In this document: positions 3,477 to 48,156 of the stretch, in pieces
Layout of the letters: each line of letters opens with the position of its first letter
Numbering within the stretch: position 1 is the stretch's first letter
Virus record (IMG/VR): IMGVR_UViG_3300020034_000005
Coordinates: 26,319-90,318 of that record
Reading direction: 5' to 3' (one strand)
DNA from: a virus
DNA: 64,000 nt
The notes under the pieces: generated by a model
Seen by the model: the letters and a program-made list of their open reading frames with translations, nothing else
What the model was told of the DNA's origin: nothing
Database searches by the model: none
Position numbers and translations under genes: made by a program

Positions 3477-3722
3477 TCAGGCCCGCGGCGGGTGGTCAAC
3501 CACGAACGTCCCGATGCCGCTCTCGCCACGCAGCCACCCCTCCGCACGCAGATGCGCCAAGGCTTTCTGGCTGGTGGAACTGGCGATCCCCAGCTCGGTG
3601 GCCAGACCAAGCGTCGACGGGACACGGCTCCCCGGCGGATAGGTGCCGTCCTCGATCCGTGCAATGACGATCGCGACGACCTGCCGCCACATCGCCCGCG
3701 TCCGGTCCAACTCTCCGCTCAT
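3477..3722 (-). CDS. GntR-family wHTH regulator
   Basis: IEDGTYPPGSRVPS...LATELGI...L..EG......GIGTFV. Confidence 0.85.
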   Translation of the reverse strand: MSGELDRTRAMWRQVVAIVIARIEDGTYPPGSRVPSTLGLATELGIASSTSQKALAHLRAEGWLRGESGIGTFVVDHPPRA

Positions 3723-3870
3723 GATCCAGACCGTGCCATCCCGCACCCTGCCGCGCGACCGCAGCAACCATCGCCATGGCGCGGTATGCCGCAGTAAGGT
3801 TGCGGGACGAATTGCCCCCGCGACCGATGACGCGGCCCGGGGGTACGGACGACACCGGAGGAGCGCCGCC

Positions 3871-4059
3871 ATGAAGCAGACTACCCACCGCCCCGCGCAC
3901 GCGGCAGAGCCCGCCACCGGGTGGTGCCACTGGCACAAAGGCGCATCCGAGACCGCGGTCCTGGTCCAGATCATCGAGCAGGCGTCGGCGTCCGGGGCCC
4001 GCCTGTACGCGTGCACCCCGTGCAGGGAACAGCACCACTTGGTCCCGGAGGCGTCATGA
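3871..4059 (+). CDS. Small Zn-binding protein
   Basis: CHWH...CTPC; RBS GGAGGAG. Confidence 0.6.
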   Translation: MKQTTHRPAHAAEPATGWCHWHKGASETAVLVQIIEQASASGARLYACTPCREQHHLVPEAS

Positions 4060-5558: not shown

Positions 5559-5838
5559 CTGGGGAGCGCCTGGGGAGAATCTGGGGGTGGGCGGCACCTG
5601 GGGAGAGGTGGATCGGAACCCAACGACCCACCATCGGAACTCAACGCAACGCATCGGAACAGTCAAAAGGGCAGTTCAGCACCATCCCGCAAAACGATTG
5701 AGGGGAACCCGCAGGCCCAGGATGCACGGCTAACAAAACCCGGCGTACAGGCCGACTCGTCCGCTGTCTGAACCTCTGACCTGGGAACTCTTGCCGAGTT
5801 CCTAGATCAACTGGGGTGCTGGGGAGAATCTGGGGAGA
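5559..5838. other. attP: arm-type repeats flanking a core matching the rnpB 3' end (5733..5763)
   Basis: CTGGGG(AG) repeats at 5559, 5570, 5581, 5598 and 5811, 5819, 5830; ATCGGAAC at 5612, 5633, 5653; core ACAAAACCCGGCGTACAGGCCGACTCGTCCG; abuts integrase stop. Confidence 0.8.
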
Positions 5839-35911: not shown

Positions 35912-36047
35912 GAGTGCTCCTTCTTCGCGGTAGGAACTCACTGATCAGCAGGTGGCAACCCGCTGGTTGGGCTGGCCGGACGTTCGCAGCGTCCGGCCTT
36001 TCACGTCCCCCCCAATTCAACGACGTGGGCGGGGATGCGTCTCGGTG

Positions 36048-36461
36048 TCAGTGCGGGAGTACGCCATCGAGGTACTCCTGCACCGGTCCGAACAGCCCGT
36101 AGGGCACGTACTCCGCGATCTCCGAGTGCGCGATCCAGGCGACCGCGTCCAACTCCTCGTCGTCAGCGACCCGGGCCTCACCGCCGACGGGGCGGACCGC
36201 GACGTAGTGCATCGGCACCTTCGACTTCGGGTGGACTCGATCACCGAGCACCTTGATCACTTCCACCTTCAGGCCGGTCTCCTCGTCGACCTCGCGGACC
36301 GCCGCCTCCTCCGGGGACTCGCCGGCCTCGATCGCGCCCCCCGGGAAGACCCAGGAGATCTCACCCTCAGAGGCGCGGCGGCGGGCCATGAGGACCTTCC
36401 CGCCATCGGTGATGATCGCCACCGACACGGGGGGCTTCTCGGCAGTCGTCTCGGTCGTCAT
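36048..36461 (-). CDS. Nudix hydrolase
   Basis: Nudix box PGGAIEAGESPEEAAVREVDEETGL. Confidence 0.92.
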   Translation of the reverse strand: MTTETTAEKPPVSVAIITDGGKVLMARRRASEGEISWVFPGGAIEAGESPEEAAVREVDEETGLKVEVIKVLGDRVHPKSKVPMHYVAVRPVGGEARVADDEELDAVAWIAHSEIAEYVPYGLFGPVQEYLDGVLPH

Positions 36462-37096
36462 ACGGTGGCCTCCAGGGCGTCCAGGATCGGCGGGTAGATG
36501 CGGTCGGCGGGGATGTAGCGGGAGAGCTCCGCTATGGGAGCCCATGCCACGTCGGCGTTTTCGGAAGCGTCCCCATTGACCGCTTCGCCGCGCACGAAAT
36601 CGCAGAGATAGTAGTTGCAGTAGGCGCGGGTTACGGGATGAAGTCGTTCACCGAGGTGCTCACGGACCATGCAGTGGATGCCTGTTTCGTCGAGCGTTTC
36701 GCGGACCGCGACCTTGGTGGCGGATCCGCCCGGCTTGACGATTCCGGCAGGGAACTGCCAGGTGATGTCCGTGCCGTCCTGCCTGCAGACGAGGAGCACC
36801 TCACCCCCGCGGCGCACCACGGCGATGGCTACACGCAAGGCCTGTGCCTGCATCTGCTGGGGCTGGGCGCGCGTGTAGTGGATGAACCGCCGACGCACCG
36901 CATCACCTGCCTTCTCCGTGTAGGCCGTATTCAGAATCCGGCGGGTTTCCAACTTCGGGACCATGTCCGGCGACTTGTGCCATGACGCGACACTCCGGAC
37001 GGAGACCCCGAGGCGCGCAGCGAATTCCTCCTGCGAGTCCTCGAATGCGTCCTGGAGACAGCACGCGTGTCGTCCGGTCCACTGGGTGACATCCAC
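36458..37096 (-). CDS. XRE-HTH + Nudix fusion
   Basis: SQEEFAARLGVSVRSVASW; PAG.VKPG....VAVRETLDETGI. Confidence 0.88.
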   Translation of the reverse strand: MDVTQWTGRHACCLQDAFEDSQEEFAARLGVSVRSVASWHKSPDMVPKLETRRILNTAYTEKAGDAVRRRFIHYTRAQPQQMQAQALRVAIAVVRRGGEVLLVCRQDGTDITWQFPAGIVKPGGSATKVAVRETLDETGIHCMVREHLGERLHPVTRAYCNYYLCDFVRGEAVNGDASENADVAWAPIAELSRYIPADRIYPPILDALEATV

Positions 37097-37139
37097 TATC
37101 GGCTCCTTGGCCGCGCCTGTGGGGGCTGTTGCGGCGAAG

Positions 37140-37200
37140 CTGCAGGGTGCCTGCATGTCCGCTGCATGATCACTGCATGTTGCTGCAGGGTGACTTCATG
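37140..37200. repeat. Helically phased CTGCA(T/G)G repeats (putative operator)
   Basis: Copies at 37140, 37151, 37162, 37173, 37183; variant at 37194. Confidence 0.65.
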
Positions 37201-37246
37201 GTCCAGGGACGCGCACGCGCGTTGACTCGATCCCATGAAGCCACCG

Positions 37247-37501
37247 TCACTCTCCCTTGCCGTACTGGAAGGCGCGTTGGTACGTGACGCCTCCCATGAT
37301 CTTGCCGATCTGCTTCCAGGTCGTCGTGGGGGTCTTGAGCCCCTGGGCGATCTCTTGGCGTTGGCGTCTGCGGAACAGTTCGAGTTCCTCTTCGAGGTGC
37401 TTGGCGAGGTTGACGAATGCGGCCCAGCGCTCGGGGAGGTCTTCGATCGCGCGCAGCTCGTCGTCGTAGCGCGTGTAGGGAGCGTCGGAAGAGATGGCCA
37501 T
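37247..37501 (-). CDS. Small HTH regulator
   Basis: TWKQIGKIMGGVTYQRAFQY. Confidence 0.7.
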   Translation of the reverse strand: MAISSDAPYTRYDDELRAIEDLPERWAAFVNLAKHLEEELELFRRRQRQEIAQGLKTPTTTWKQIGKIMGGVTYQRAFQYGKGE

Positions 37502-37565
37502 GACGTGAGAGTACGGGCGATCCGACGCTCACTCAAGACTCAGCTAGAGAAAGTGAGTTGGGTGC

Positions 37566-37594
37566 TTGACTCCCCGTCGTGCGACCTCTACGGT
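37566..37594 (+). promoter_or_regulatory. Principal-sigma-type promoter of the transfer-like operon
   Basis: TTGACT-N17-TACGGT. Confidence 0.55.
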
Positions 37595-37751
37595 CGAGAC
37601 ATCGAAGCCTCAAGCTGCGATTTGAGAATGATCGTCGTCCACTCCTACCGGACCCAGTCCGCGGACGATGAACAACCAAACAAAGCGGGCCGGCCGCGAC
37701 TCCTACATCGCAGGCCGACCCTGACCAACAGGCTCTAACGAGGAGACCCTG

Positions 37752-38066
37752 ATGGGTAAGCCGTACTCTAACGCGCCGCTCAAGGGCGCCGATCATGTGG
37801 CGTCCCGCCCCGGCCGCACGCCGCAATCCCACTATGCGGCGGCGCGGTCTGCCGAGGATGTTGCTCGCGGTCTGTCGCTTCGCTTCACGGTCCGTAGCTT
37901 CACGGGCAGGTTCGCCGACGACGTCGACGCGGTCGCCGTCGAGCGGGCGGAGTTGAAGGCGGCGCGCGACAGCTACAGCCTGCTGGCCGCGGCGCACCGG
38001 TCGGCGGCTCGCCGGATGGAGCGCGTTCAGCGCCTGCGGTCGCTGGTTCGCCGGGCGGTGGCCTGA
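37752..38066 (+). CDS. Hypothetical protein
   Basis: GAGGAG RBS. Confidence 0.6.
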   Translation: MGKPYSNAPLKGADHVASRPGRTPQSHYAAARSAEDVARGLSLRFTVRSFTGRFADDVDAVAVERAELKAARDSYSLLAAAHRSAARRMERVQRLRSLVRRAVA

Positions 38067-38248
38067 TGCCCTCCACCGACAAGCGCAAGGTCCTGAAGGA
38101 GTTCCCTGCCGGCGACCCGCGCGGCTCCTGGCCGGCGGAGCGGTATGCCGACAAGCAGCGTGCGAACGGACGGCGGGTCGAGGTCGTCTTGGACCTGGCC
38201 AGCGACAAGTTCGTGGTCTTCATCCCGGCCGGGGCGGTGTCGTCGTGA
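38066..38248 (+). CDS. Hypothetical protein
   Basis: TGATG overlap. Confidence 0.6.
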   Translation: MPSTDKRKVLKEFPAGDPRGSWPAERYADKQRANGRRVEVVLDLASDKFVVFIPAGAVSS

Positions 38249-38685
38249 TGCACCCGCCGAACTTTTCGCTCCCGTTGACGCAGGTGGATGTCAAGACCGC
38301 CCCGGTTCCGGTTGTCTCGCTCGCCGAGCTGTGGGACGGCATGACGGCGTCGGTGGCTGCGACGGTCACCACCGTGGATCGGCGGGCGACCGGATATGGC
38401 AGCCCGTGGGCGGTCGTGACCCTGGAGGACGACTCGGGTTCGGTCAAGTGCGCGGTGTTCCCAGCCACGTACCGGGTTGTCGCCGAGTCCCTCACTGTCG
38501 GCGCCCGTCTGGTCGTCCGTGGCCGGGTTGACGCCCGTGAGGCCGAGGTCCGGCTCATCGCGATGACCGTGACTAAGGCGGAGATGGCTGCTGCGGAGCG
38601 GTGGCGCTGCCCGGGCTGCGACACGTGGAACACGGCCAAGCGCGATCCGAAGCGCTGTCACGTGTGCGGCGAGAAGCGCAACTAA
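38245..38685 (+). CDS. OB-fold nucleic-acid-binding protein with Zn ribbon
   Basis: WAVVTLED.SG.V.C.VFP..Y...G..L.V.GRVD; CPGC...CHVC. Confidence 0.75.
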   Translation: MMHPPNFSLPLTQVDVKTAPVPVVSLAELWDGMTASVAATVTTVDRRATGYGSPWAVVTLEDDSGSVKCAVFPATYRVVAESLTVGARLVVRGRVDAREAEVRLIAMTVTKAEMAAAERWRCPGCDTWNTAKRDPKRCHVCGEKRN

Positions 38686-38774
38686 CCCCCGATCCAGCCG
38701 CGGGCGAATCACCCCCCGCTTCCGCCCGCGGCTTCCACCCCACCCCACCGTCCCGAGAGGATCCGTGATTCCCC

Positions 38775-39020
38775 ATGTCTCCATCCGTTCTGTCCGACGC
38801 CGATCTGGCTGCCACGACCGCGCTGGGTGCCCGTCGCAGGGCTGCTGTGTCGGTGGCTGAGGCGCACGACGAGCACGTCGCGGAGTTGCTCACCGACTTC
38901 GCTGTGGCGCGTGCCGCTGGCCGTTTCGACGTGATGCAGCTGATCCGTGACCACGCGGCTGCGATCGATCCCGGGCTCGTCGCCGAGCTCGACGGGTTCG
39001 ACTACCTCGCGGCTGCGTGA
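38775..39020 (+). CDS. Hypothetical protein
   Basis: Operon context. Confidence 0.55.
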   Translation: MSPSVLSDADLAATTALGARRRAAVSVAEAHDEHVAELLTDFAVARAAGRFDVMQLIRDHAAAIDPGLVAELDGFDYLAAA

Positions 39021-39280
39021 CTGCCATGGACACCGTCTACCGGTACGCCGCGGTCCTGGCCGCGATCTGCACGCTGCTCGTCGCGGACGCTGCGCTCGGC
39101 GCACACACCTGGTGGTGCCGACTGCGCGGTGCGCACGACGAGACCCCGATGTTCTTGCGGCTCAACCGGGCCGTGGGGTGGGCCGATCGCGACCCGAACC
39201 TCCCTGACCGGTGGCGCGACCCCCGCGACGTCGCCGCAGCCCGGCAGGGCAGTGACGCCTACAACGCCCTGGAGGGCTGA
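39017..39280 (+). CDS. ETPxFLRLN-family small protein with hydrophobic N-terminus
   Basis: Aligns with 45098 and 45578 ORFs. Confidence 0.65.
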   Translation: MTAMDTVYRYAAVLAAICTLLVADAALGAHTWWCRLRGAHDETPMFLRLNRAVGWADRDPNLPDRWRDPRDVAAARQGSDAYNALEG

Positions 39281-39283
39281 CCC

Positions 39284-39493
39284 ATGCCGATCACGTTCCG
39301 TAAGTCCTTCCAGGTCTTCCCCGGCATCCGCCTCAACATCAACGCGAAGTCGATCTCCCGGACGTTCGGGCTCAAGGGCGGCCCGCACCACACCCGCAGC
39401 AGCACCGGGCGCCACACCACGTCGATGAATCTTCCCGGCCCGTTCGGATACCGCTCGACCAGCACCCGCAGCCGTCGCCGGCGGGGGGAGTGA
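39284..39493 (+). CDS. DUF4236-like basic protein
   Basis: FRKS.Q.FPG.RLN....S.S..G. Confidence 0.7.
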   Translation: MPITFRKSFQVFPGIRLNINAKSISRTFGLKGGPHHTRSSTGRHTTSMNLPGPFGYRSTSTRSRRRRGE

Positions 39494-40014
39494 TCGGCAT
39501 GAAGCTGACCACCCACCGTCTCAGCCGGAAGCACCAGCCCGTCGTGGACCGCGTGACGTTGATCCTCGATGAGGCGGCGCGGGTCGTGAAGCGCCACAGC
39601 GGATGCGGCGTCGGCCGGACCGAGGTCGCGGTCACGACGAGGCGCGGCGTGACCGATCTGGCGTGCAGGGCGCATGAGGGTCTGTTCGGCGTGAGTGATC
39701 CGGACGACTGGGACAACTCGGCCGGGACGACGACGTTGACCCGCACCGGAACCCTGGTGATCGTCAACGCTGATGCGCACCTGCGACACCTCGAGGAGGT
39801 CGACAGGACTCTCCTCCATGAGCTGGCGCATGCCGCGCAGTTCAACCGGCCCGGTGCCCGCAAGCAGAACCTGCGCGCCATCGAGTATGGCCTCGGCCTC
39901 CGCGAACTGTCGGCCACCGAATGCAGGGCCGGAACGCGGCGGATGGACGCCGACGAGCTGGAAGCGGAGCGGGCCGAGGACCTGCTCCGGCAGCTCGCGA
40001 AGGCGGTGCGCTGA
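39490..40014 (+). CDS. HEXXH metallopeptidase-like protein
   Basis: TLLHELAHAAQ, downstream E. Confidence 0.7.
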   Translation: MIGMKLTTHRLSRKHQPVVDRVTLILDEAARVVKRHSGCGVGRTEVAVTTRRGVTDLACRAHEGLFGVSDPDDWDNSAGTTTLTRTGTLVIVNADAHLRHLEEVDRTLLHELAHAAQFNRPGARKQNLRAIEYGLGLRELSATECRAGTRRMDADELEAERAEDLLRQLAKAVR

Positions 40015-40187
40015 TGCCGACCTGGATCCTCACCGTGACCTCCCGCACCGGCGCCAAGGTCGAACCGCTCACCGGTGCTCCGTCGCACAGCTTCGCCGTC
40101 TACGACCGGGACGTCCTCGAGCAGCACCTCGACGCCGCGAAGTACGACCCGCGTGACCTGCACATCGACGTCCGCAAGATCGCCTGA
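40014..40187 (+). CDS. Hypothetical protein
   Basis: TGATG overlap. Confidence 0.5.
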   Translation: MPTWILTVTSRTGAKVEPLTGAPSHSFAVYDRDVLEQHLDAAKYDPRDLHIDVRKIA

Positions 40188-40222
40188 CCACCCAGCCCGT
40201 CACCACACCGAAGGGATCACCG

Positions 40223-41584
40223 ATGAGCAGCGGATTCCGCTCCTGGGAGGAGCGCAACGCGGACACGGCGAGGACCCGTGCCGAAGCCGCGAAGCTCACC
40301 GCCGAAGCCAAGACCGCCGAGCAGAACGCCACCGTCGGGGCTGCGAAGGTTGTCACCGATCAGCTCGCCGAGCAGATCAAGCAGACGAAGCTCCGCAACC
40401 AGCTCGCCGATGTCAAAGGCCGCGCCGATGATGACAAGGACCGGCGCCAGGCCAGGCGTCGCGAGCAGCGGGCCGACGACGGCACCACGTTCAAGGTCCT
40501 CGTCAACATCGTCATGACGCTGGGCCTGCTCGCCGCGCTGCCCGCCCAGATGTCGTACTTCCTCACCCTGCACCGCAAGGACGACCAGCACCCCGGCTAC
40601 GCCTGGACGCTCACCCCCGTCCCGTTCTTCCTCGAACTCCTCGCCTGGGTCGGCGTCATGGGCACCCGGTGGGCGCACCGCAAAGGTCTGCCCCGCTGGC
40701 CGTTCTGGCTGATGACCGCAGCGCTCGCCTCGGTCGCCGGCTACATCAACCTGGCGCACGGCAGCACCGAGTACGGGATCGTCGCCGGGATCGCCCTGGC
40801 CGCGACGTCGATCATCGGTCCGCTGCTCGCGGAGGTCCGCCAGTTCCTGGAGACCAAGGCCGCCGAAGACGGGCGGACCCTACAGCAGCGGGCCCGAGAC
40901 CGTCGTACCGCCCGTGAAGAGTCGAAGCAGCGGCGTGCGCAGGAGCGCATCGAGAAGGACGAAGACGGCCGACGCAAGGAACTCTTCAAGGACGAGTTCG
41001 ACGAGTTCCGGCGGATCATCGCCGCGCACCCCACCGGAGGCATCAGCCGCGAGTCGGCGTGGGAGCAGGCGTGGGACACCATGCACCTCCTCCCGCTGTC
41101 CGTGACGGTGGAGAGCCTCGCCTCACGGGAGGTCGCCAGGGAGGCCATCGAAGAGGTCATGGCGGACCACGGGTCCACCCGCGAAAGCCTCGCCGTCGAC
41201 CTCTGGCTCGCTGAGATTTTCCCACCCGACCGCGGCGACGACGGACCCGCAGGAGCGCCCGCAGAGGGTGCGCCCATCGAGCCCACGGGGGGAGGGTCAC
41301 GGGCCCGCAGTGAGAGGCACCCCGAGGGCACCGAAGGCCTTGTGGGGAAAAGGAAGCAGGCACCTCGCGGCTCGACAAACGGCGCCGCCCTGAAGCCCCT
41401 TGATGACGCGGACTTGGAGAAGGTCCGGAAGCTCGCCGCCGCCCTCGGGTCGGCAGCACATCTCTCCCATAGCGCCGTGAAGAAAGCGGTCGGCGGGGGC
41501 CGCAACGAGTACCTCGCTCGGCTCCGCAAGACCGTGCAGGCGGAAGCGCGACAGGGGCAAGCCAAGCCCGGAACAGACGACTGA
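40223..41584 (+). CDS. Spd-like membrane coiled-coil protein (DUF2637-like) with C-terminal HTH-like end
   Basis: About four TMs flanked by coiled coils; LSHSAVKKAVGGG. Confidence 0.7.
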   Translation: MSSGFRSWEERNADTARTRAEAAKLTAEAKTAEQNATVGAAKVVTDQLAEQIKQTKLRNQLADVKGRADDDKDRRQARRREQRADDGTTFKVLVNIVMTLGLLAALPAQMSYFLTLHRKDDQHPGYAWTLTPVPFFLELLAWVGVMGTRWAHRKGLPRWPFWLMTAALASVAGYINLAHGSTEYGIVAGIALAATSIIGPLLAEVRQFLETKAAEDGRTLQQRARDRRTAREESKQRRAQERIEKDEDGRRKELFKDEFDEFRRIIAAHPTGGISRESAWEQAWDTMHLLPLSVTVESLASREVAREAIEEVMADHGSTRESLAVDLWLAEIFPPDRGDDGPAGAPAEGAPIEPTGGGSRARSERHPEGTEGLVGKRKQAPRGSTNGAALKPLDDADLEKVRKLAAALGSAAHLSHSAVKKAVGGGRNEYLARLRKTVQAEARQGQAKPGTDD

Positions 41585-41612
41585 TCCACAACCCTCAACC
41601 AGGAGACCCCTC

Positions 41613-42197
41613 ATGAACACCACCATCCGCCGGATCGCCGTCTCGGGCAGTGCGGCCGTCGCCCTCCTAGGAGGCGCCGCCGCGATCAACATGAGCGCCG
41701 CGCCCGACGCGTCCGCCACCGAAATCAGCACCGCCATCGACCAGGCCACCGGCGCCCCCGTCAACCTCCCCGACGGGCGGGTCATGCACATCCGCGGCCT
41801 CGACACGGCCGGCTACCAGGCCGACGCCGCCCACCACACCGCAGTCGTGCGACTCGCCGCCGACACCAACCCCGGCACCACCGGCGGTACGTACAACGAC
41901 CAGACCGGGACCGGCACCGGCCAGCAGAACCCGACGGTGGGGAACGGGGTCAGTTACACCCCCGCGCAGGTGCAGACCCAGGCGGGCGGCGGCACCATCG
42001 CCATCGGCATCGTCGTGATCATCGTTCTCGGCACCATTGCCTTCTTCCGGGTCAAGGGCAGCGCCAAGGTCGGCGACGCAGTCCTCTTCGCCTTCCTGGG
42101 TGTTGCCATGTCGGGAACGGTCTTCGGAGTCATGGCGAAGACGATGTCGGAGCAGGGAGTCGGCTCCCTCGGCGGCATCCTCGGCGGCCTCGGCTAA
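41613..42197 (+). CDS. Secreted/membrane protein upstream of traB
   Basis: Signal peptide, G/T/Q linker, two C-terminal TMs. Confidence 0.7.
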   Translation: MNTTIRRIAVSGSAAVALLGGAAAINMSAAPDASATEISTAIDQATGAPVNLPDGRVMHIRGLDTAGYQADAAHHTAVVRLAADTNPGTTGGTYNDQTGTGTGQQNPTVGNGVSYTPAQVQTQAGGGTIAIGIVVIIVLGTIAFFRVKGSAKVGDAVLFAFLGVAMSGTVFGVMAKTMSEQGVGSLGGILGGLG

Positions 42198-42235
42198 CCC
42201 CCACCACCCCCAACCACTCTGAAAGGACTTGGCCA

Positions 42236-44425
42236 GTGGCCACCGACCAGAAGCCCACCCCCGAGCCGACCAAGCAGGAAACCACCTGGCGGGACAAGCT
42301 GCGCGGCCGCGGCGCCGACCAGGCAGCGAAAGCGCGCGCCGCCCTCGCCGTACAGCGCGACCACGCCAAAGCCCGCACCGGGGACTGGCTGAAGGGCGCC
42401 GACCTCACCGACGAGGACCTTCAGCAGATGGTGACAGAGAAGGCCCGGGAACACCGCGCTCAGCGGGTGGCGGAAGCCGAGCAGCAGGTCGCCATCCTGG
42501 AGAACCGTCTCGACATGGCCCGGTCCATGGGGAAACGCGGCAAGGACATGGTCTCGCAGCTCAAGATGCAACTCGTTGTTGCCGAGGACGCCCTGGACGC
42601 GGTCGCCAGCGAGCCGGACCCGCCCCCCACCCAGCGTCAGCTCAACTCGGCCCGGCTGAAGAAGCGCGCCACCCGGGCCGGCTACCTGGTCGGCGGCGGG
42701 CTCCTGGCCCTGAAAGGTGCGGCCACCGACCCGACGCTACTCGGCTTCCTGGGCGTCGCGGGCGGCTACGGCTGGTACCTGGTGTCGCGCCCTTTCACCG
42801 ACGGCCAGACCCCTGCACCTGCACCGAGCACCCCGCAGGGACTGGCCACCCCGCAGAGTCCGGCACCTTCGATCAACCTGACCAAGCCCGAACCGGCGCC
42901 CGGGGTGAGGGAGTTCAACGCCCCACCGCCGCCCGCGCTCACAGTTAGCCAGTTGGACGAAGCCCTCCGCAGTGTCGGCATGGTGCGACCAGGCGAGAAG
43001 ATCCAGATCCTGGCCGTGCCGCAGCGAGAGAAGGACGGCAACACTACCGTCGTTTTCGATCTGCCCGCAGGCCAGAAAGTCGCCAACCTCCAGCTGAAGA
43101 TCGAGGAGTTCGCCGGGGCGCTCGGCCGCGACTCCACCATGGTCGACATCGAGAAGGCGGGCAGTGCGGTCCGCACCAGCCTGTGGATCACCGACGAGGA
43201 CCCGTTCGCGAACACCCGCCCCTCACCGCTGATCACGCACCCGACGCAGATCGACGCGTTCAGAGACGGCATCCCGGTCGGGTGGGGGAAGCGCGGGAAC
43301 ACCATCAAGCTCCCCATCAGCAGCTCGAACATCGTGATCGGCGGCGGTGCCCGCTCCGGCAAGGGCGTCGGCGCCTCGAACCTCGCCGTCGGCGCCACCT
43401 TCGACCCGCGCATCAACCCCCGGATCGTCGCGGGCAAGCAGAACGCCGAATGGGACGCCTACGCCCGTGCCGGAATCGCCTGCACGTACTTCAAGCCGGA
43501 CCCGGCCCGGCTTCTGGCACTTCTCGATGCCGAGATCGCGGACAAGGACCGGCGCGAGGCGGCGCTGGGCAGGCTCGGCAAGAGCAAGCTGGTCGGCCCC
43601 GCGATCGAGCAACTCGGAGGCATCGAGCTCATCATCATCGACGAGCTCGCCACATACACACGCCCCGGAAAACCGCTCCGGGACGAGATCCTGGAACGCC
43701 TCGTACTCCTCGCGTCCGTAGCACCGGCCGCCGGGATCCTCCTGGTCGTCCTCACCCAGTACCCGGGCGTCGACATCTTTCCGACCGAGCTGGCCGTGAA
43801 CTTCACCACGAAGTGGGCGATGCGCGTCGACACGGCGACGCAGTCCAACGCGATCCTCGGCGCCGGTTCGTCCGGCATGGGCCGCGATGCATCCAAGTTC
43901 GACCCTCCCCGGCCGGGCTTGGGCTGGCTCGTCAACCCCTTCGTCGGGGTCACCGACCGGGCTCGCAGCTTCGACATTGACGAGGATGAGCGCGGCGAAA
44001 TCAGCATGCTGCAGGAGAAGGCCGCGAAGATCCGTGAAGCTGCGGGGCGTCTCGCCGGGCAGTGGGACGACCCGATCGAGCGACACCTCCTCAACGCAAC
44101 CGGACTGTCCTCGGCGGCCGGCGGACCGAAGCGCGACGGCATCCCGGGACGGAACGTTCTGAATCACACGCCGGACCAGAAGTTCCAGATCGGCTGCTGC
44201 CGTCAGGCACTTGAGGCCATGGATCAGCTGGGTCGTGATGTGGCGCAGCTCGACGAGATGGCTCAGATCATCGGTGCGATCCAGAGCGACGAGCTTGGGA
44301 GGGCGCTTCGTTCCGCAGGCGCCGGCGGAACCGTGAAGATCACGGTTCCCGGCCGGGAGGGGCAGGTTCGCGGCTACCAGCGGGCCGACGTCAAGGACGC
44401 GCTGGACTTGCTGCTCGGCTCCTGA
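42236..44425 (+). CDS. traB: TraB-like FtsK/SpoIIIE DNA translocase
   Basis: Two TMs, alpha domain, Walker A GGARSGKG, Walker B IIIDE, LTQYP, C-terminal wHTH ending GYQRAD. Confidence 0.8.
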   Translation: MATDQKPTPEPTKQETTWRDKLRGRGADQAAKARAALAVQRDHAKARTGDWLKGADLTDEDLQQMVTEKAREHRAQRVAEAEQQVAILENRLDMARSMGKRGKDMVSQLKMQLVVAEDALDAVASEPDPPPTQRQLNSARLKKRATRAGYLVGGGLLALKGAATDPTLLGFLGVAGGYGWYLVSRPFTDGQTPAPAPSTPQGLATPQSPAPSINLTKPEPAPGVREFNAPPPPALTVSQLDEALRSVGMVRPGEKIQILAVPQREKDGNTTVVFDLPAGQKVANLQLKIEEFAGALGRDSTMVDIEKAGSAVRTSLWITDEDPFANTRPSPLITHPTQIDAFRDGIPVGWGKRGNTIKLPISSSNIVIGGGARSGKGVGASNLAVGATFDPRINPRIVAGKQNAEWDAYARAGIACTYFKPDPARLLALLDAEIADKDRREAALGRLGKSKLVGPAIEQLGGIELIIIDELATYTRPGKPLRDEILERLVLLASVAPAAGILLVVLTQYPGVDIFPTELAVNFTTKWAMRVDTATQSNAILGAGSSGMGRDASKFDPPRPGLGWLVNPFVGVTDRARSFDIDEDERGEISMLQEKAAKIREAAGRLAGQWDDPIERHLLNATGLSSAAGGPKRDGIPGRNVLNHTPDQKFQIGCCRQALEAMDQLGRDVAQLDEMAQIIGAIQSDELGRALRSAGAGGTVKITVPGREGQVRGYQRADVKDALDLLLGS

Positions 44426-44433
44426 GTGCCTCG

Positions 44434-44577
44434 TTTGCCCCGTCTTGTCGGGTGGCGATCGGTCGTTTTGCCCCGTCTTGTCGGGTGGCCGCTGGGTGGA
44501 TTCCATCCGGCTGCTATCCACCCTCGAAGATCGACTATCCACCCCCCAAGGCGGGGCGAATGATCCCATAACCACCC
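44434..44577. repeat. clt-like repeat cluster downstream of traB
   Basis: 23-bp direct repeat at 44434 and 44467; CTATCCACCC at 44514 and 44535; GGGTGG x3 then CCACCC x3. Confidence 0.6.
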
Positions 44578-44648
44578 TGTTTAGTGCGCAGATCGCCCGA
44601 CATCAGCTCTAACTGTCCAGCAGGGATCACTACTCGAAGGAGATCGAC

Positions 44649-45059
44649 ATGAAAGAGATTTACGAGCGTTCGAAGCGCGGCGCCAAGCAGCTCGAACGTG
44701 ATGTTCGGATCGGCACCGTCCTCTACACCGTCGTGGACGTCGCCCAGAACTACGCCCCGTGGGAGGACGCGCAGCTGTACAGCCGCTGCGTCGTGACCTT
44801 CAGGAGCCGCGTCACCGGCAACCTGATGATCAGCGGCAGCATGTCGGTGATCGGCCTGGCCCTCCGCGAAGGCCCCGTCTACACGGAGAAGCCCAAGGGT
44901 CTGCGGAACCTCGCCAAGCCCGGACGGCAGGTCTCCGGCCCGCTGCCCGACGGCTATGAGGGTGTCCTCGACGAGGCCGAACTCAAGGGCCTGGAGAAGC
45001 GGGTCCGCAACGGCAGTGACCCCCGTAAGCGCCGCCGCCTCGGCGGCTGGCGCGTCTGA
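44649..45059 (+). CDS. Hypothetical protein
   Basis: AAGGAG RBS. Confidence 0.7.
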   Translation: MKEIYERSKRGAKQLERDVRIGTVLYTVVDVAQNYAPWEDAQLYSRCVVTFRSRVTGNLMISGSMSVIGLALREGPVYTEKPKGLRNLAKPGRQVSGPLPDGYEGVLDEAELKGLEKRVRNGSDPRKRRRLGGWRV

Positions 45060-45097
45060 CCGCACCGGAACAACCACCAACCCCCGAGAAGGAGCAC

Positions 45098-45286
45098 GTG
45101 ATGCCGAAGCAACCGCGGGCCGACCGTAAGGCCGTCAACCGGGCGAGCCGTGAGGCGGACGCCGCCCTGCATGAGAACCAGCGCAAGGAGAAGGCTGCCG
45201 GTGTCACCGAGGTGACACCGGAGTTCCTCCGCCTGAACGCGATCGCCACCGAGGCCGCGAGCAACGCCTCCTGGTACCGCCGCTAG
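45098..45286 (+). CDS. ETPxFLRLN-family small protein
   Basis: AAGGAG RBS; paralogy. Confidence 0.7.
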   Translation: MMPKQPRADRKAVNRASREADAALHENQRKEKAAGVTEVTPEFLRLNAIATEAASNASWYRR

Positions 45287-45339
45287 ATCCGTATGACGAC
45301 CAGTACGACCGTCGCCAACACACACCCAAGGAGCCAGAT

Positions 45340-45549
45340 ATGAGCAACGAACCGCAGAAGTACGCCGACGGCCTCACCGACGCTCAGCACCGGGCACTGA
45401 GGGCGTCGCGCCAGGAAGACACGAAGCATGCACGCCGCGAGGCGAGCGGCGACGTCCCCATGCACTGCGGGGAGTCGATGGGGCACGCCGGAGACGGCTA
45501 TTACCGGTGCGTGAACTGCCCCACGAACTTCGACGTCAACAGTTTCTGA
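45340..45549 (+). CDS. Small Zn-ribbon protein
   Basis: HCG...C..C; AAGGAG RBS. Confidence 0.6.
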   Translation: MSNEPQKYADGLTDAQHRALRASRQEDTKHARREASGDVPMHCGESMGHAGDGYYRCVNCPTNFDVNSF

Positions 45550-45577
45550 ATCCGTACACAACCCGAAGGGGAGACCG

Positions 45578-45781
45578 ATGGGCATCCGCGAACGCCGCGC
45601 CGCCATTAAGGCGTACAAGGCCGCTGACAAGGCGCTTGAGGAGAAAGGGCAGCGCGACCAAGCAGCCGGGATCGACTACGAAACCCCGGAATTCCTTCGA
45701 CTCAACCGTGCGGTCGCCGAGGCAGAGGACAACCCGCACCTGCCCGACCGCTACCGCGACCCCCGCGACCTGCACGACTGA
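45578..45781 (+). CDS. ETPxFLRLN-family small protein
   Basis: GGAG RBS; paralogy. Confidence 0.7.
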   Translation: MGIRERRAAIKAYKAADKALEEKGQRDQAAGIDYETPEFLRLNRAVAEAEDNPHLPDRYRDPRDLHD

Positions 45782-45868
45782 TGACCGGGGGCGTCCCCTC
45801 CGCCTGGACAGCAACGGGACGCCCCCACCACCCCAGCACAGCCCAACGACCGTGAGGAGCACTACGAC

Positions 45869-46486
45869 ATGACCACGCCCGTCACCACGGCGGCAACCCC
45901 GCACGCACCGCCCGACGCCACCAGCACGCTGATCGTCGAGATTGAGCAGTACCTCGCCGACCACGCCCCGCAGGCCGCGCCCCCGCAGCCGCGCCCGGCG
46001 ACCGCACACCAGCTCGTCACCAAGACCACCGCGGAGTTGGTCGCCGAAGCGTTGGGCGCCCCTGTGGCGGCGGCCGTGCCCGCGGCGCCCGTACTCCAGC
46101 CGCCGCCCGCCTTCCTGCGGCGCCTTCCGGACTGGGCACTCACCCTGCCCATGATCCGCAACCGGTTCGGTGGCGGCGGGCAGGACGTCACTGTTGCCCA
46201 GCACCTCCAGTTGACCGCCATGGTCATCGAGCGCTGGGGATGGGCCCAGGGCACCCTCCGCAAGAGCGGGTGCATCTGCATCGAGGGCGCCCAGTTCGTG
46301 CTCCTGCGCCTCGGCTACGGCAACGGCGACACCCTCCACGCCGCCACCCTCCACCTCCACCAGCTCCTCGCCAACGTCGGCGCCGGATCCCTCACCGCCT
46401 GGAACGACCACCCCGGCCGCACCCAGCAGGAAGTCCTCCAACTCATCCGCATGGCCGCCACCAGCGCACAGGAGATCCGACGATGA
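45869..46486 (+). CDS. DUF6197-like protein
   Basis: GW.QG...C..GA...WND.PGRT..EV. Confidence 0.7.
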   Translation: MTTPVTTAATPHAPPDATSTLIVEIEQYLADHAPQAAPPQPRPATAHQLVTKTTAELVAEALGAPVAAAVPAAPVLQPPPAFLRRLPDWALTLPMIRNRFGGGGQDVTVAQHLQLTAMVIERWGWAQGTLRKSGCICIEGAQFVLLRLGYGNGDTLHAATLHLHQLLANVGAGSLTAWNDHPGRTQQEVLQLIRMAATSAQEIRR

Positions 46487-46674
46487 CGAAGAAACGCGAC
46501 CTGAAGATCGACACGTTCGAAACGGTCCGCCCCGGCAAGAGCAACGTGCAGTGGGTGTCCGCGATCCACGACGAGAACGACCCGTGGTTCAGCCTGCAGT
46601 CCGAACCCCACACCACCAGGCAGGCATCCATCGACGACGTCACCCGCAAGGCCCGGAAGGCGGGGGTGGCCTGA
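46483..46674 (+). CDS. Hypothetical protein
   Basis: ATGA overlap. Confidence 0.55.
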   Translation: MTKKRDLKIDTFETVRPGKSNVQWVSAIHDENDPWFSLQSEPHTTRQASIDDVTRKARKAGVA

Positions 46675-46973
46675 TGGGCGCGAGGATCAGCCACTACGAC
46701 GGGGCACCCTCCTGGCACACCATCGAGAACCTCGGCGTACAGCTCGAGCACGTCACCACGTCCGGTCAGTGGCGGCACCTCAAGCCGCTCTTCGACGGGA
46801 GTCTCCGCGGCCCCGTCTCCGTGTCGCCCCGCGACGCCGCCCGCATCGGCGACTACCTCGAGTCCGCCGCCGGCCACCGCTTGATGCCCGGCAACTGGGC
46901 CGACCTCGCCCGCAAGATCGCCAAGGCCGCCCACCGGGCCGCCAACCGCAACCAGCAATGGACCTGGGAGTGA
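46674..46973 (+). CDS. Hypothetical protein
   Basis: TGATG overlap. Confidence 0.65.
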   Translation: MGARISHYDGAPSWHTIENLGVQLEHVTTSGQWRHLKPLFDGSLRGPVSVSPRDAARIGDYLESAAGHRLMPGNWADLARKIAKAAHRAANRNQQWTWE

Positions 46974-46978
46974 CCTGC

Positions 46979-47404
46979 ATGCCTGCCGAGACCACGACGA
47001 TCACCCTGACCCCGCTGACTGCCGATGAAGTATTCGAAGGCGGTGCCTTCCGCAGCGACGGAGGCCTCGATGAAGGACGCTGGTTCTTCCGCGGGCACCT
47101 CACCGCCGGACAGGTCGACAAGGTCTACTTCGAGGCGTACCCGGAGCAGCGCTTCCCAGATGTGCTTGACGCCGACAGCGTTGAGCAGGTCTGGCAGGTG
47201 TTCACCGCCCACGGGGACGACTGCTACCTCGTCGGCGAGAACAACTCGGACACCCCGTTCACCGACACCGACTGCATGCTCTGCACCTGCGAGTCCGGCC
47301 CCGCCATGGACCACGACGGGGTCGAGTACCGGCACCCGCATAAGGCAGACGCCACCACCCCGGGCGCCATCGCCGTCACCTGGGCAACCATCCGCGCCGT
47401 CTGA
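46979..47404 (+). CDS. Hypothetical protein
   Basis: FRGH...PGAIAVT, similar end to 17888 ORF. Confidence 0.65.
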   Translation: MPAETTTITLTPLTADEVFEGGAFRSDGGLDEGRWFFRGHLTAGQVDKVYFEAYPEQRFPDVLDADSVEQVWQVFTAHGDDCYLVGENNSDTPFTDTDCMLCTCESGPAMDHDGVEYRHPHKADATTPGAIAVTWATIRAV

Positions 47405-47605
47405 TCACCCAGAAGCGGAAGGGCCCCGGCCGTCTCGCTCGGTCGGGGCCTTCGTTGTGGGTGCGGGTACGGCGCGGGCGATCCACCGGCCGGCCGTCAC
47501 CATCCGCGGGTCCATGGCCGGCTCCAGCCCCAACGCGACCAACGCCCGCAGCCCTTCGGCGCATTCGTGTTCGTCGTCACCCTGCACCGTGAAACGCAAC
47601 GCCAT
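47405..47605 (-). CDS. Hypothetical protein
   Basis: Short ORF. Confidence 0.45.
   Translation of the reverse strand: MALRFTVQGDDEHECAEGLRALVALGLEPAMDPRMVTAGRWIARAVPAPTTKAPTERDGRGPSASG
47418..47453. terminator. Hairpin at convergence of transcription units
   Basis: GGCCCCGGCCG...CGGTCGGGGCC. Confidence 0.5.
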
Positions 47606-47653
47606 ACGGGGAGTGTGCCCGGGGCGGGTGATGCGGCGGGGCGGAACGTGGAT

Positions 47654-47977
47654 TCAGCCCCGGATCTCGGAGGACTGGGCGTCCAGGCGCGCCCGCACCT
47701 TGGCGACCCTGTCCATGTCTGGCTGTACTTCCGGAGCGTCGATGTCGAGCTCAGCGTGGATGCGCTGATAGATGCCGAGTTCGAGGAGCGGGATCTGGAT
47801 CTCGTCCCAGGGCGTCGGGCCGACCGCCGCGGTCAGGTCCTTGATCCGCTGGGTGATGTCGTCGCAGCTGACGGACCAGGTACCGTTGATGGCGGACCGC
47901 CTGGCGATCTCCAGATCGCCCCACAGGCAGGCCAGTTCCTCGCGGGCCACAACTTCGAGCTTCATTGTGTCGATCAT
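47654..47977 (-). CDS. Hypothetical protein
   Basis: ATGA overlap, GGAG RBS. Confidence 0.6.
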   Translation of the reverse strand: MIDTMKLEVVAREELACLWGDLEIARRSAINGTWSVSCDDITQRIKDLTAAVGPTPWDEIQIPLLELGIYQRIHAELDIDAPEVQPDMDRVAKVRARLDAQSSEIRG

Positions 47978-48156
47978 TCGGACTCCCCGCGGTCGGGTAG
48001 CGGCCCGTAGCCTGCCTGTTGGAGTTCGTACATGAGGTCCCCGACGTCCGAGCCGAGCCCGTCGTTGGCGTCCTCGATCCACTTCCAGACGATGCCGAGC
48101 AGCGCGCGAGCGTCGTTGCCGTTCAGCGGCTGCGATCCCATCTGGCCTTCGGTCAC
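47974..48156 (-). CDS. Hypothetical protein
   Basis: GTGA overlap. Confidence 0.55.
   Translation of the reverse strand: MTEGQMGSQPLNGNDARALLGIVWKWIEDANDGLGSDVGDLMYELQQAGYGPLPDRGESE

Follow-up and report, generated by a model that had tools for sequence, protein, structure and literature searches.

A TraB-like translocase gene and a putative clt site in the early region of a temperate phage genome

Can a temperate phage carry the kind of machinery by which Streptomyces plasmids move DNA between hyphae, and if so, does that machinery belong to the phage? This question is raised by a 64,000-nt stretch of viral DNA (IMG/VR record IMGVR_UViG_3300020034_000005), referred to here as the window, which is the terminal 64 kb of a 90,308-bp contig (C338 of bin G000). 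The window contains a gene for a 729-aa FtsK-family protein, P0001, which is followed directly by a cluster of short repeats and preceded by genes for two membrane proteins; together these are called the tra block. TraB-pump conjugation and tailed-phage infection are usually seen as separate routes of gene flow in Streptomyces, and pZL12, the one known hybrid, has seemed a curiosity. It is likely, but by no means certain, that within a temperate siphophage genome of ~90 kb the block represents a module for conjugative DNA transfer of the Streptomyces type. As judged from homology, the cis site and the conserved context, the reading as a TraB-type transfer module is well supported.

How would such a module work? 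Its parts would be a TraB-like hexameric-type translocase of double-stranded DNA (dsDNA), a cis-acting clt site and genes for membrane partners. The C-terminal winged helix of P0001 would bind the GGGTGG array just downstream of its own gene, and this binding would load the FtsK-like motor on the circular phage DNA, whether excised or replicating. Anchored in the membrane with a DUF2637-like protein and a protein with two transmembrane (TM) helices, the motor would move dsDNA to a neighbouring compartment or into a contacting mycelium, a step that would require neither a relaxase nor a type IV secretion system. The phage would thereby have a cell-to-cell route in addition to the virion route. 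Pumping phage dsDNA between hyphae is probably what P0001 does, if its inter- and intramycelial roles are counted together. DNA binding, ATPase activity with a GKG P-loop, the timing of expression and any transfer are what we infer from the sequence.

The translocase and its P-loop

What kind of FtsK-family protein is P0001? It is colinear with the TraB protein of plasmid pSG5 (738 aa), with 26% identity across residues 240-709 (~470 aa, E 7e-34), and it is 44% identical to the Tra protein of plasmid pZL1 (E 2e-90). By contrast, the match to the chromosomal FtsK of bin G000 is restricted to 77 aa around Walker B (E 2e-6). A comparison of TraB with chromosomal FtsK had been proposed in the initial annotation of this DNA, and on sequence grounds its outcome is that P0001 is a genuine homologue of TraB and much nearer to plasmid Tra proteins than to the chromosomal FtsK of the bin. 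Matches to P0001 were found in 52 plasmid records, 47 of them from Streptomyces, and the protein also matches phrog_1358 (E 1.2e-21).

In an AlphaFold model built from 42 homologues (mean pLDDT 68), the N-terminus is a coiled coil, followed by a segment that is helical and moderately hydrophobic, a linker that is Pro-rich and disordered, the alpha/beta motor and, at the C-terminus, a winged helix. The best Foldseek matches of this model are to the FtsK motor domain (6t8o, 2iut; E 2e-12), followed by the conjugation coupling protein TcpA and by EssC/EccC. The order of helices (H) and strands (E) predicted for the C-terminal domain is H646-665, E669-671, H672-679, H684-694, E700-703, E710-715 and H716-726, with a block-mean pLDDT of ~59-93 that is mostly above 77; residues 646-726 are thus predicted to form a winged-helix DNA-binding domain. 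The hydrophobic segment at ~147-185 is helical in the model and has a maximum Kyte-Doolittle (KD) value of 1.24, compared with 1.38 in pSG5 TraB. The initial annotation had described an FtsK-family translocase with TM helices and a winged helix-turn-helix (HTH); the motor and, as a prediction, the winged helix are borne out, but the supposed TM region is only moderately hydrophobic.

In most P-loop NTPases, the Ser or Thr that follows the Walker A Lys coordinates Mg2+. The Walker A motif of P0001 is GGARSGKG (residues 370-377, preceded by a further G: GGGARSGKG) and Walker B is D469-E470. Could P0001 be an ATPase-dead DNA-binding or scaffold protein that acts as a membrane anchor for DNA, or as a regulator at the repeats before the downstream operon? 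The GKG form in place of GK(S/T) would suit such a protein, and a regulator would find a possible operator in the array, which is promoter-proximal to the next gene (44649). Even so, the chance that this explanation is correct is slight. Among 119 relatives (650-780 aa, overall identity 60-73%), R373-S-G-K-G-V378 and N382 are invariant (119/119), G379-A-S381 shows conservative changes only (106-111/119), and the Walker B residues D469-E470 are again found in all 119; T507-Q508 is invariant across the 42-sequence alignment. This combination of invariant P-loop, Walker B DE and TQ motif fits a working nucleotide site. Furthermore, the Walker A motif of pZL1 Tra has the same GKG form (RTGKG), and in pSG5, where Walker A of TraB is a canonical GAGKS, the same layout of repeats follows the gene. 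Because RSGKG is invariant in 119/119 relatives and pZL1 Tra shares the GKG form, it is a conserved trait of the subfamily and not a sign of decay, which answers a caveat that the initial annotation had attached to this motif.

The repeat array downstream of the tra gene

Where would such a motor be loaded? According to PMC4170104, TraB forms its hexamer at clt through recognition of 8-bp TRS repeats. In the window, the initial annotation had pointed to a repeat cluster after the translocase gene, and the cluster is indeed present in the 223 bp after the tra stop codon. It contains two perfect 23-nt direct repeats, at 44434 and 44467, and six GGGTGG cores in 128 bp, of which those at 44450, 44483 and 44494 are forward and those that follow, at 44518, 44539 and 44572, are inverted. 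This is the densest GGGTGG cluster of the 90-kb contig (Poisson expectation ~1e-4 contig-wide). A second GGGTGG-rich spot at ~18.2 kb was rejected as an array, as it is a coding His-Pro run.

Plasmid pSG5 served as a control. The 260 nt past its traB stop codon (L028 7411-7670) contain five CCCGGAC words, three forward and then two inverted, a count that is reached by 0/110 background windows. When the 200 bp past the tra stop were examined in 46 loci, they had the locus-wide maximum exact-7-mer count in 18/46 and ranked in the top 1% in 21/46. The word CCCGGAC, or one overlapping it, is found in ~26 of the 46 loci and is the same core as in pSG5. In pZL1, the repeat word CCTGGGAC is present three times, which is unexceptional by the same 7-mer statistic. 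From its position and layout, the repeat cluster of the window behaves like a cognate, if putative, clt site beside the tra gene.

Another aspect of the array is its relation to the wing of the winged helix. The word CCCGGAC pairs with the wing GRVNGY, and the wing of pSG5 TraB is SRVSGY. In the window and in locus L007, GGGTGGAT pairs with GQVRGY; overall, the L007 protein is 64% identical to P0001, and thus no closer than the proteins of loci bearing the other word. GTAGGAC pairs with GRTTGY, and CTGCTCG with NPRG(Y/F). These wing and repeat pairs are a natural set for studying the evolution of TraB specificity.

The tra block in phage genomes

Is the block part of the phage, or a guest within it? 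The remaining 26 kb of the contig, outside the window, encode TerL (PHROG E 4e-77), a portal protein (7e-140) and a major head protein (3e-39), together with a protease, a scaffold protein, a 1556-aa tape measure protein, a tail protein, an endolysin and a tyrosine integrase, all by PHROGs. Among the window proteins (genes were picked by third-position GC, given the high-GC DNA) are a tyrosine integrase, the second of the contig, DNA methylases, a YqaJ exonuclease and a DnaB-like helicase. An overlap between the contig ends was sought and none was found; in locus L016, genes matching both contig ends adjoin, with TerL next. Since the ends are adjacent in L016, the contig is taken to be a complete or near-complete circularly permuted genome. 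Judged by its terminase, portal, capsid, tail and lysis genes, integrase and attP-like core, the contig is a temperate tailed phage. No matches were returned by megablast of window positions 30000-54000 against phages and 36000-48000 against plasmids, or by Rfam at gathering scores for 36000-47500.

By gene order, the tra block is located in the early region of the complete phage genome, upstream of the late genes. Phage genes flank it on both sides, and the head-tail-lysis module is found on the same contig just beyond the window. No att-like direct repeats flank the block; the single long repeat is a 95-nt, 73% match between paralogous small genes. No integrase or Rep was detected inside it, although RepSA, RepAM and Prim-Pol were not searched with models of their own. 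A nested actinomycete integrative and conjugative element (AICE) was rejected, as att-like flanking repeats were not found around the block. Two statements of the initial annotation are upheld here. The first is that the block is embedded in a temperate phage: the complete virion module is on the same contig, and the block is conserved in related phage genomes. The second, that the block has no att site or separate integrase, holds for the block only, the phage having two tyrosine integrases and an attP-like core elsewhere.

Do other phages carry the block? In genome loci, TerL was found 5-10 kb downstream of the tra homologue in L011, L016, L018 and L021; L007, L008, L010 and L026 have it 17-25 kb downstream, with tra homologue and TerL on one contig and one strand. 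L009, L014 and L020, and probably L015, have a PF05065 capsid gene 9-13 kb downstream. Conservation in relatives with head-tail genes, a check that the initial annotation had suggested, is therefore seen in at least 11/22 genome loci, where TerL or capsid is linked to the tra homologue, with one further probable case. The sole capsid match of L023 and of L027 is on another contig, and L013 (15.7 kb) was searched within its flanks only. In IMG/VR, 24 virus records encode a P0001 homologue (50-72% identity), and in 13 of them a TerL of this family is encoded as well. One record of 62.8 kb has direct terminal repeats, is rated 100% complete, and contains a Nudix pair upstream of its tra homologue. 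The two sets are not independent, since several of the IMG/VR proviruses are copies of genome loci (L052 equals L022, for example). As far as gene order and linkage can tell, the tra block belongs to temperate phage genomes as an integral and conserved component and is not an element nested within them. This TraB subfamily is mostly annotated as 'hypothetical protein'; it is distinct, is accompanied by a recognisable clt-like site and membrane partners, and is itself a conserved component of many integrating Streptomyces prophages and of IMG/VR records. Open-access and bioRxiv text yielded no description of integrating prophages in which a TraB subfamily with clt is a conserved component.

A separate case is CP042280.1 (92,592 bp; L022 and L052), which is an unannotated Streptomyces plasmid and also a 100%-complete virus record in IMG/VR. 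Its tra homologue has 56-58% identity and an array of six CGAGCAG words; TerL, portal and PF05065 capsid were not found with these queries.

Has the block instead been captured recently as cargo from a plasmid or AICE, as a moron or nested remnant, or does it serve in exclusion of, or defence against, incoming conjugative DNA? The genes around tra do vary: across 45 related loci, and counting matches with at least 50% query coverage, tra is found in 42, and only the genes for a 136-aa (27/45), a 194-aa (20/45) and a 453-aa protein (18/45) recur, with the Nudix pair upstream of tra in 10. The closest non-phage relatives of P0001 are plasmid Tra proteins. An exclusion role would fit the Nudix genes, which are tied to conjugal immunity of pSAM2 and appear as 'exclusion systems (nudix)' in PMC9513070. 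However, neither att-like repeats nor an integrase nor a Rep was found inside the block (Rep families were searched without models of their own), and in many phages diverged to 50-72% identity the tra homologue has kept its place and orientation upstream of the late genes. Many columns of the protein are invariant, including the whole P-loop. In addition, the cis site has been kept and its repeats co-vary with the winged helix; neither a decaying gene nor one that functions only in exclusion would need it. Recent capture or a role in exclusion is therefore considered decidedly improbable.

How does a conjugative transfer module in a phage compare with known systems? Of the TraB proteins of Streptomyces conjugative plasmids, which also include those of pSVH1 and pIJ101, the one compared is that of pSG5. 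P0001 and pSG5 TraB are similar in length (729 vs 738 aa), are colinear and combine an FtsK-type motor with a C-terminal DNA-binding domain; in both systems, short repeats come straight after the stop codon, with forward copies before inverted ones. They differ in Walker A (RSGKG in P0001, GAGKS in pSG5) and in the repeat word (GGGTGG(A/C) in the window, CCCGGAC in pSG5). Moreover, pSG5 is a 12-kb rolling-circle plasmid, whereas the block is found in a phage genome of ~90 kb with virion genes. The closest non-phage relative found, with the same deviant GKG P-loop, is Tra of pZL1 (NC_023316.1, 127.9 kb). There the gene order is GntR regulator, small ORFs, DUF2637 protein, 81-aa ORF, Tra and small ORFs, with a Nudix gene ~6 kb further on. 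The order DUF2637, small ORF, Tra and the nearby Nudix gene resemble the window. In contrast to the contig, phage late genes were not seen in the 41 kb of pZL1 that were inspected, and the C-terminal domain and repeat word are also different.

AICEs are 9-24 kb in size, replicate by means of RepSA, RepAM or Prim-Pol, and have no virion genes. PMC3218068 and PMC9513070 describe AICEs such as pSAM2, SLP1 and pMEA300 as having a single FtsK-like Tra, an integrase, integration at a stable RNA gene, and Nudix genes. All four features recur in the phage, integration at a stable RNA gene being suggested by its attP-like core; by contrast, a full head-tail-lysis module and a DnaB-like helicase are present here. 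The label 'AICE-type', which the initial annotation had given to the block, was rejected: among non-phage proteins, the nearest relatives found belong to the Tra proteins of large Streptomyces plasmids, where a DUF2637 gene and a small ORF precede tra in the same way, and no Rep of the AICE kind was seen (searched without dedicated Rep models).

The element pZL12 is reportedly ~90 kb in size and both a phage and conjugative in Streptomyces (it is said to have been described by Zhong et al. in J Bacteriol in 2010). Its conjugal transfer depends on a major tra gene together with two adjacent genes, as stated in PMC3583192, and pSLE1 and pZL12 have genes for phage particles, for ParAB and for a type III PKS according to PMC4487206. 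A conjugative Streptomyces phage-plasmid is therefore already known from the tra locus of pZL12, and the novelty implied by the initial annotation is reduced accordingly. Gene by gene, the virion module of the contig is 33-82% identical (portal 82%, capsid 82%) to those of two circular Streptomyces plasmids of ~90 kb, NZ_CP108705.1 (L004/L005) and NZ_CP109578.1 (88 and 92 kb). Both encode ParAB, a type III PKS and a tyrosine integrase, and since this gene content matches the published description, they are regarded as pZL12-like, by description and not by comparison with the pZL12 sequence. The candidate Tra of these plasmids (717 aa) has a GSGKT P-loop and is not close to P0001, and a search for a close P0001 homologue in NZ_CP108705.1 found none. 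The contig also differs from the pZL12 type in having no ParB_N match and in having two tyrosine integrases and an attP-like core.

To our knowledge, no link to clt or TraB has been reported for the FtsK-like proteins of the lytic Streptomyces phages Geonosis, Jaresh and AndoPrime. FtsK/SpoIIIE-like genes are annotated in these phages in PMC11536984 and PMC13587820. The proteins have no tblastn similarity to P0001 (E<=1e-5) and represent another family.

Several observations weigh against the interpretation of the block as a phage-borne TraB module, and they concern the protein, the array and the distribution. Pfam FtsK_SpoIIIE (PF01580) does not match P0001 at E<=0.01, and a precomputed match to this family is present in just 2/120 P0001 homologues among the matches listed. 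On the NCBIfam equivalog model for plasmid_TraB (NF041214), P0001 scores 16.3 bits (E 0.0026) with a cut-off of 800; as pSG5 TraB itself fails this cut-off with 32.8 bits, the model is narrow and uninformative here. The membrane anchor of P0001 is only weakly hydrophobic at its KD maximum of 1.24, and with no Ser or Thr after the Walker A Lys, ATPase activity cannot be assumed. In the array, the exact-7-mer statistic is unexceptional (3 copies, reached by 128/632 windows) and does not single out the window array, which the 6-mer count does; L009, L012, L038 and L041 have no clear array. The co-variation of wing and repeat may reflect shared ancestry, with which it is confounded, and the independent groups are few. 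A tblastn search of P0001 against 50,697 phage records (E<=1e-5) found no homologue. Lastly, the queries for terminase, portal and PF05065 capsid found nothing linked in L006, L012, L017, L019 and L022; some members of the family may therefore reside in elements other than phages, or in phages whose virion modules differ.

Integration, host and neighbouring genes

Does the phage integrate into a chromosome, and if so, what would a translocase add? The attP-like core beside the 445-aa integrase (Table 1) is 33 nt long, and its 91% match in one Streptomyces genome ends exactly at the 3' end of the RNase P RNA (Rfam 288.7 bits). Matches of 28-38 nt (87-93%) were found in 4/5 Streptomyces/Kitasatospora genomes. 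The Rfam match in the window itself is weak (E 0.15). Bin G000 has no match to the core longer than 18 nt; this bin is only 92.5% complete, and its own rnpB may simply be missing. A second tyrosine integrase gene (338 aa; L002:575-1591, minus strand) immediately follows the lysis genes and is situated just upstream of window position 1; its product shares 36% identity with the integrase of the pZL12-like plasmid NZ_CP108705.1. The presence of two integrases, together with the attP-like core, suggests that the phage integrates into the chromosome.

If inheritance is already secured in this way, does the translocase function solely inside the infected or lysogenic mycelium? It could move DNA across cross-walls or into prespores, in the manner of Spd spreading or of SffA/FtsK segregation, which would increase burst size or secure inheritance with no transfer between separate mycelia. 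The same machinery and evidence apply to this explanation, and the membrane partner genes are similar to spread-associated neighbours of plasmid tra genes. A profile search found no ParB_N on the contig (ParA and RepA lay outside this search), and a stage outside the chromosome would thus have no known partition system. However, plasmid TraB carries out both intermycelial transfer and spreading, as reported in PMC4170104, and sequence cannot separate these roles; besides, integration as suggested by the two integrases and the attP-like core would already secure inheritance. A purely intramycelial role is regarded as unlikely.

If the block is a conjugative transfer module, how far might its consequences reach? 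A widespread lineage of temperate Streptomyces phages might be dual-mode, with the excised circle recognised at its own clt by the phage TraB and pumped as dsDNA. This proposal is a tentative one, plausible but slightly on the doubtful side. If it is true, the phage would colonise its multicellular host and reach new strains without virions or receptors, and the pair of winged helix and clt would diversify as a specificity (incompatibility) system. A working module would also mean that host range and spread in mycelial bacteria are not bound by receptors or virion production, and that prophages could mobilise chromosomal DNA via clt-like sites. Surveys in which an FtsK-like Tra is used as the marker of an AICE or plasmid would then misassign prophages.

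Which host does the phage infect? The full-length sequence occurs only in soil-metagenome runs of one sample, from which it follows that G000 is a bin. Among the 81 contigs of this bin that measure 40 kb or more, C338 deviates most in tetranucleotide composition (GC 68.6% vs a median of 72.6%), and P0001 was not found in other genomes of the GTDB genus (0/3) or family (0/137) of G000. The contig is probably mis-binned, which makes the assignment of G000 as host doubtful. All named relatives of P0001 are from Streptomyces or Kitasatospora. Taken together, the outlier composition, these relatives and the attP-like matches indicate that the host is probably a member of the Streptomycetaceae.

Table 1. 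Features of the window discussed in the text (positions in the window, unless given as residues).
Feature	Position	Strand	Basis
attP-like core beside the 445-aa integrase	5732-5764		Sequence match to rnpB 3' end
Tyrosine integrase, 445 aa	5846-7183	-	Pfam Phage_integrase, Phage_int_M
Nudix hydrolase, 165 aa	36048-36545	-	Pfam NUDIX E 2.7e-24
232-aa protein, C-terminal Nudix domain (residues 108-219)	36458-37156	-	Pfam NUDIX E 2e-14
Five CTGCA(G/T)G words, ~11-bp spacing, at start of 232-aa gene	37140-37195		Read from sequence
84-aa small protein	37247-37501	-	GC3 0.84
Divergent intergenic region, 250 bp	37502-37751		Sequence
Rightward small genes before the tra block	37752-40014	+	Translations, Pfam
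OB-fold protein	38245-38685	+	Pfam tRNA_anti-codon OB-fold E 5.4e-11
HExxH / SprT-like protein, 174 aa	39490-40014	+	Pfam SprT-like E 5.7e-4, under cut-off
453-aa membrane protein, distantly DUF2637-like	40223-41584	+	Hydropathy, homologues
194-aa protein, signal-like N-terminus and two C-terminal TM helices	41613-42197	+	Hydropathy peaks 8-26, 129-147, 156-174
TraB-like FtsK-family dsDNA translocase P0001, 729 aa	42236-44425	+	Homology, phrog_1358, AlphaFold/Foldseek
P0001 layout: coiled-coil N-terminus; moderately hydrophobic segment; Pro-rich linker; motor; winged helix	Residues ~147-185 (hydrophobic), ~237-602 (motor), 646-726 (winged helix)
clt-like site (putative), directly after tra stop, 223 bp	44426-44648		Repeat analysis
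136-aa basic protein	44649-45059	+	Conservation
Three small ORFs, 62, 69 and 67 aa	45098-45781	+	Translations
DUF6197 protein	45869-46486	+	Pfam E 3.7e-20; 15/45 loci
DUF7739 protein	46551-46973	+	Pfam E 7.2e-27; 16/45 loci

Which of the genes around the translocase might act with it? The 453-aa protein has charged or coiled ends and hydrophobic helices within ~90-203 (segments 90-108 and 185-203, with more in between), in agreement with the TM/coiled-coil protein described in the initial annotation. Over 80 aa it shows a weak similarity to the TM region of the DUF2637 protein of pZL1 (31% identity, E 4e-6). In an alignment of its homologues, 3/11 members match PF10935 (DUF2637; best E 1.9e-6), and the annotated DUF2637 protein of pZL1 is among the 11. 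By position and this distant similarity, the 453-aa gene corresponds to the DUF2637 gene found upstream of tra in plasmids. The 194-aa protein likewise has the hydrophobic signal-like N-terminus and two C-terminal TM segments that had been ascribed to it; it has no family match and is 37-59% identical to its counterparts in other loci. Downstream of tra, the gene for the 136-aa protein is its commonest co-conserved neighbour and directly follows it in the 27 loci mentioned above (30-56% identity, no family match).

On the leftward side, the initial annotation had listed two Nudix genes, one of them with an HTH, and a divergent HTH gene and promoter. Both Nudix domains were recovered by Pfam, but no HTH family was found at E<=0.01 in the 232-aa or the 84-aa protein; the N-terminal region of the 232-aa protein is HTH-like by eye only. 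The promoter fared similarly: a consensus scan of 36000-47500 returned 0 sites, and the candidate rightward promoter at 37566-37594 (TTGACT, 17 nt, TACGGT) was picked by eye only. The CTGCA(G/T)G words may be an operator. Copies of the 84-aa protein that are 67-74% identical are present in L009 and L038, with no family match. Among the rightward genes, the 174-aa SprT-like protein is matched in 11/45 loci. The 69-aa ORF at 39284-39493 begins with MPITFRKSF..PGIRLN, and we take it to resemble the DUF4236-type small proteins.

The tra block is bracketed by paralogous small ORFs at 39017-39280 (87 aa), 45098-45286 and 45578-45781, which have the motif (T/E)P(E/M)FLRLN...PDR(W/Y)RDPRD. The latter two are the first and third of the small ORFs after the 136-aa gene and share TPEFLRLN with the 87-aa ORF. 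The 95-nt direct repeat mentioned above joins two of these paralogues (39135-39229 and 45675-45769). In plasmids, GntR-type Kor/TraR proteins are the classical repressors of tra genes. A gene for a GntR-family regulator is located at 3477-4016 of the window (minus strand, Pfam E 8e-11), 36 kb from the tra gene.

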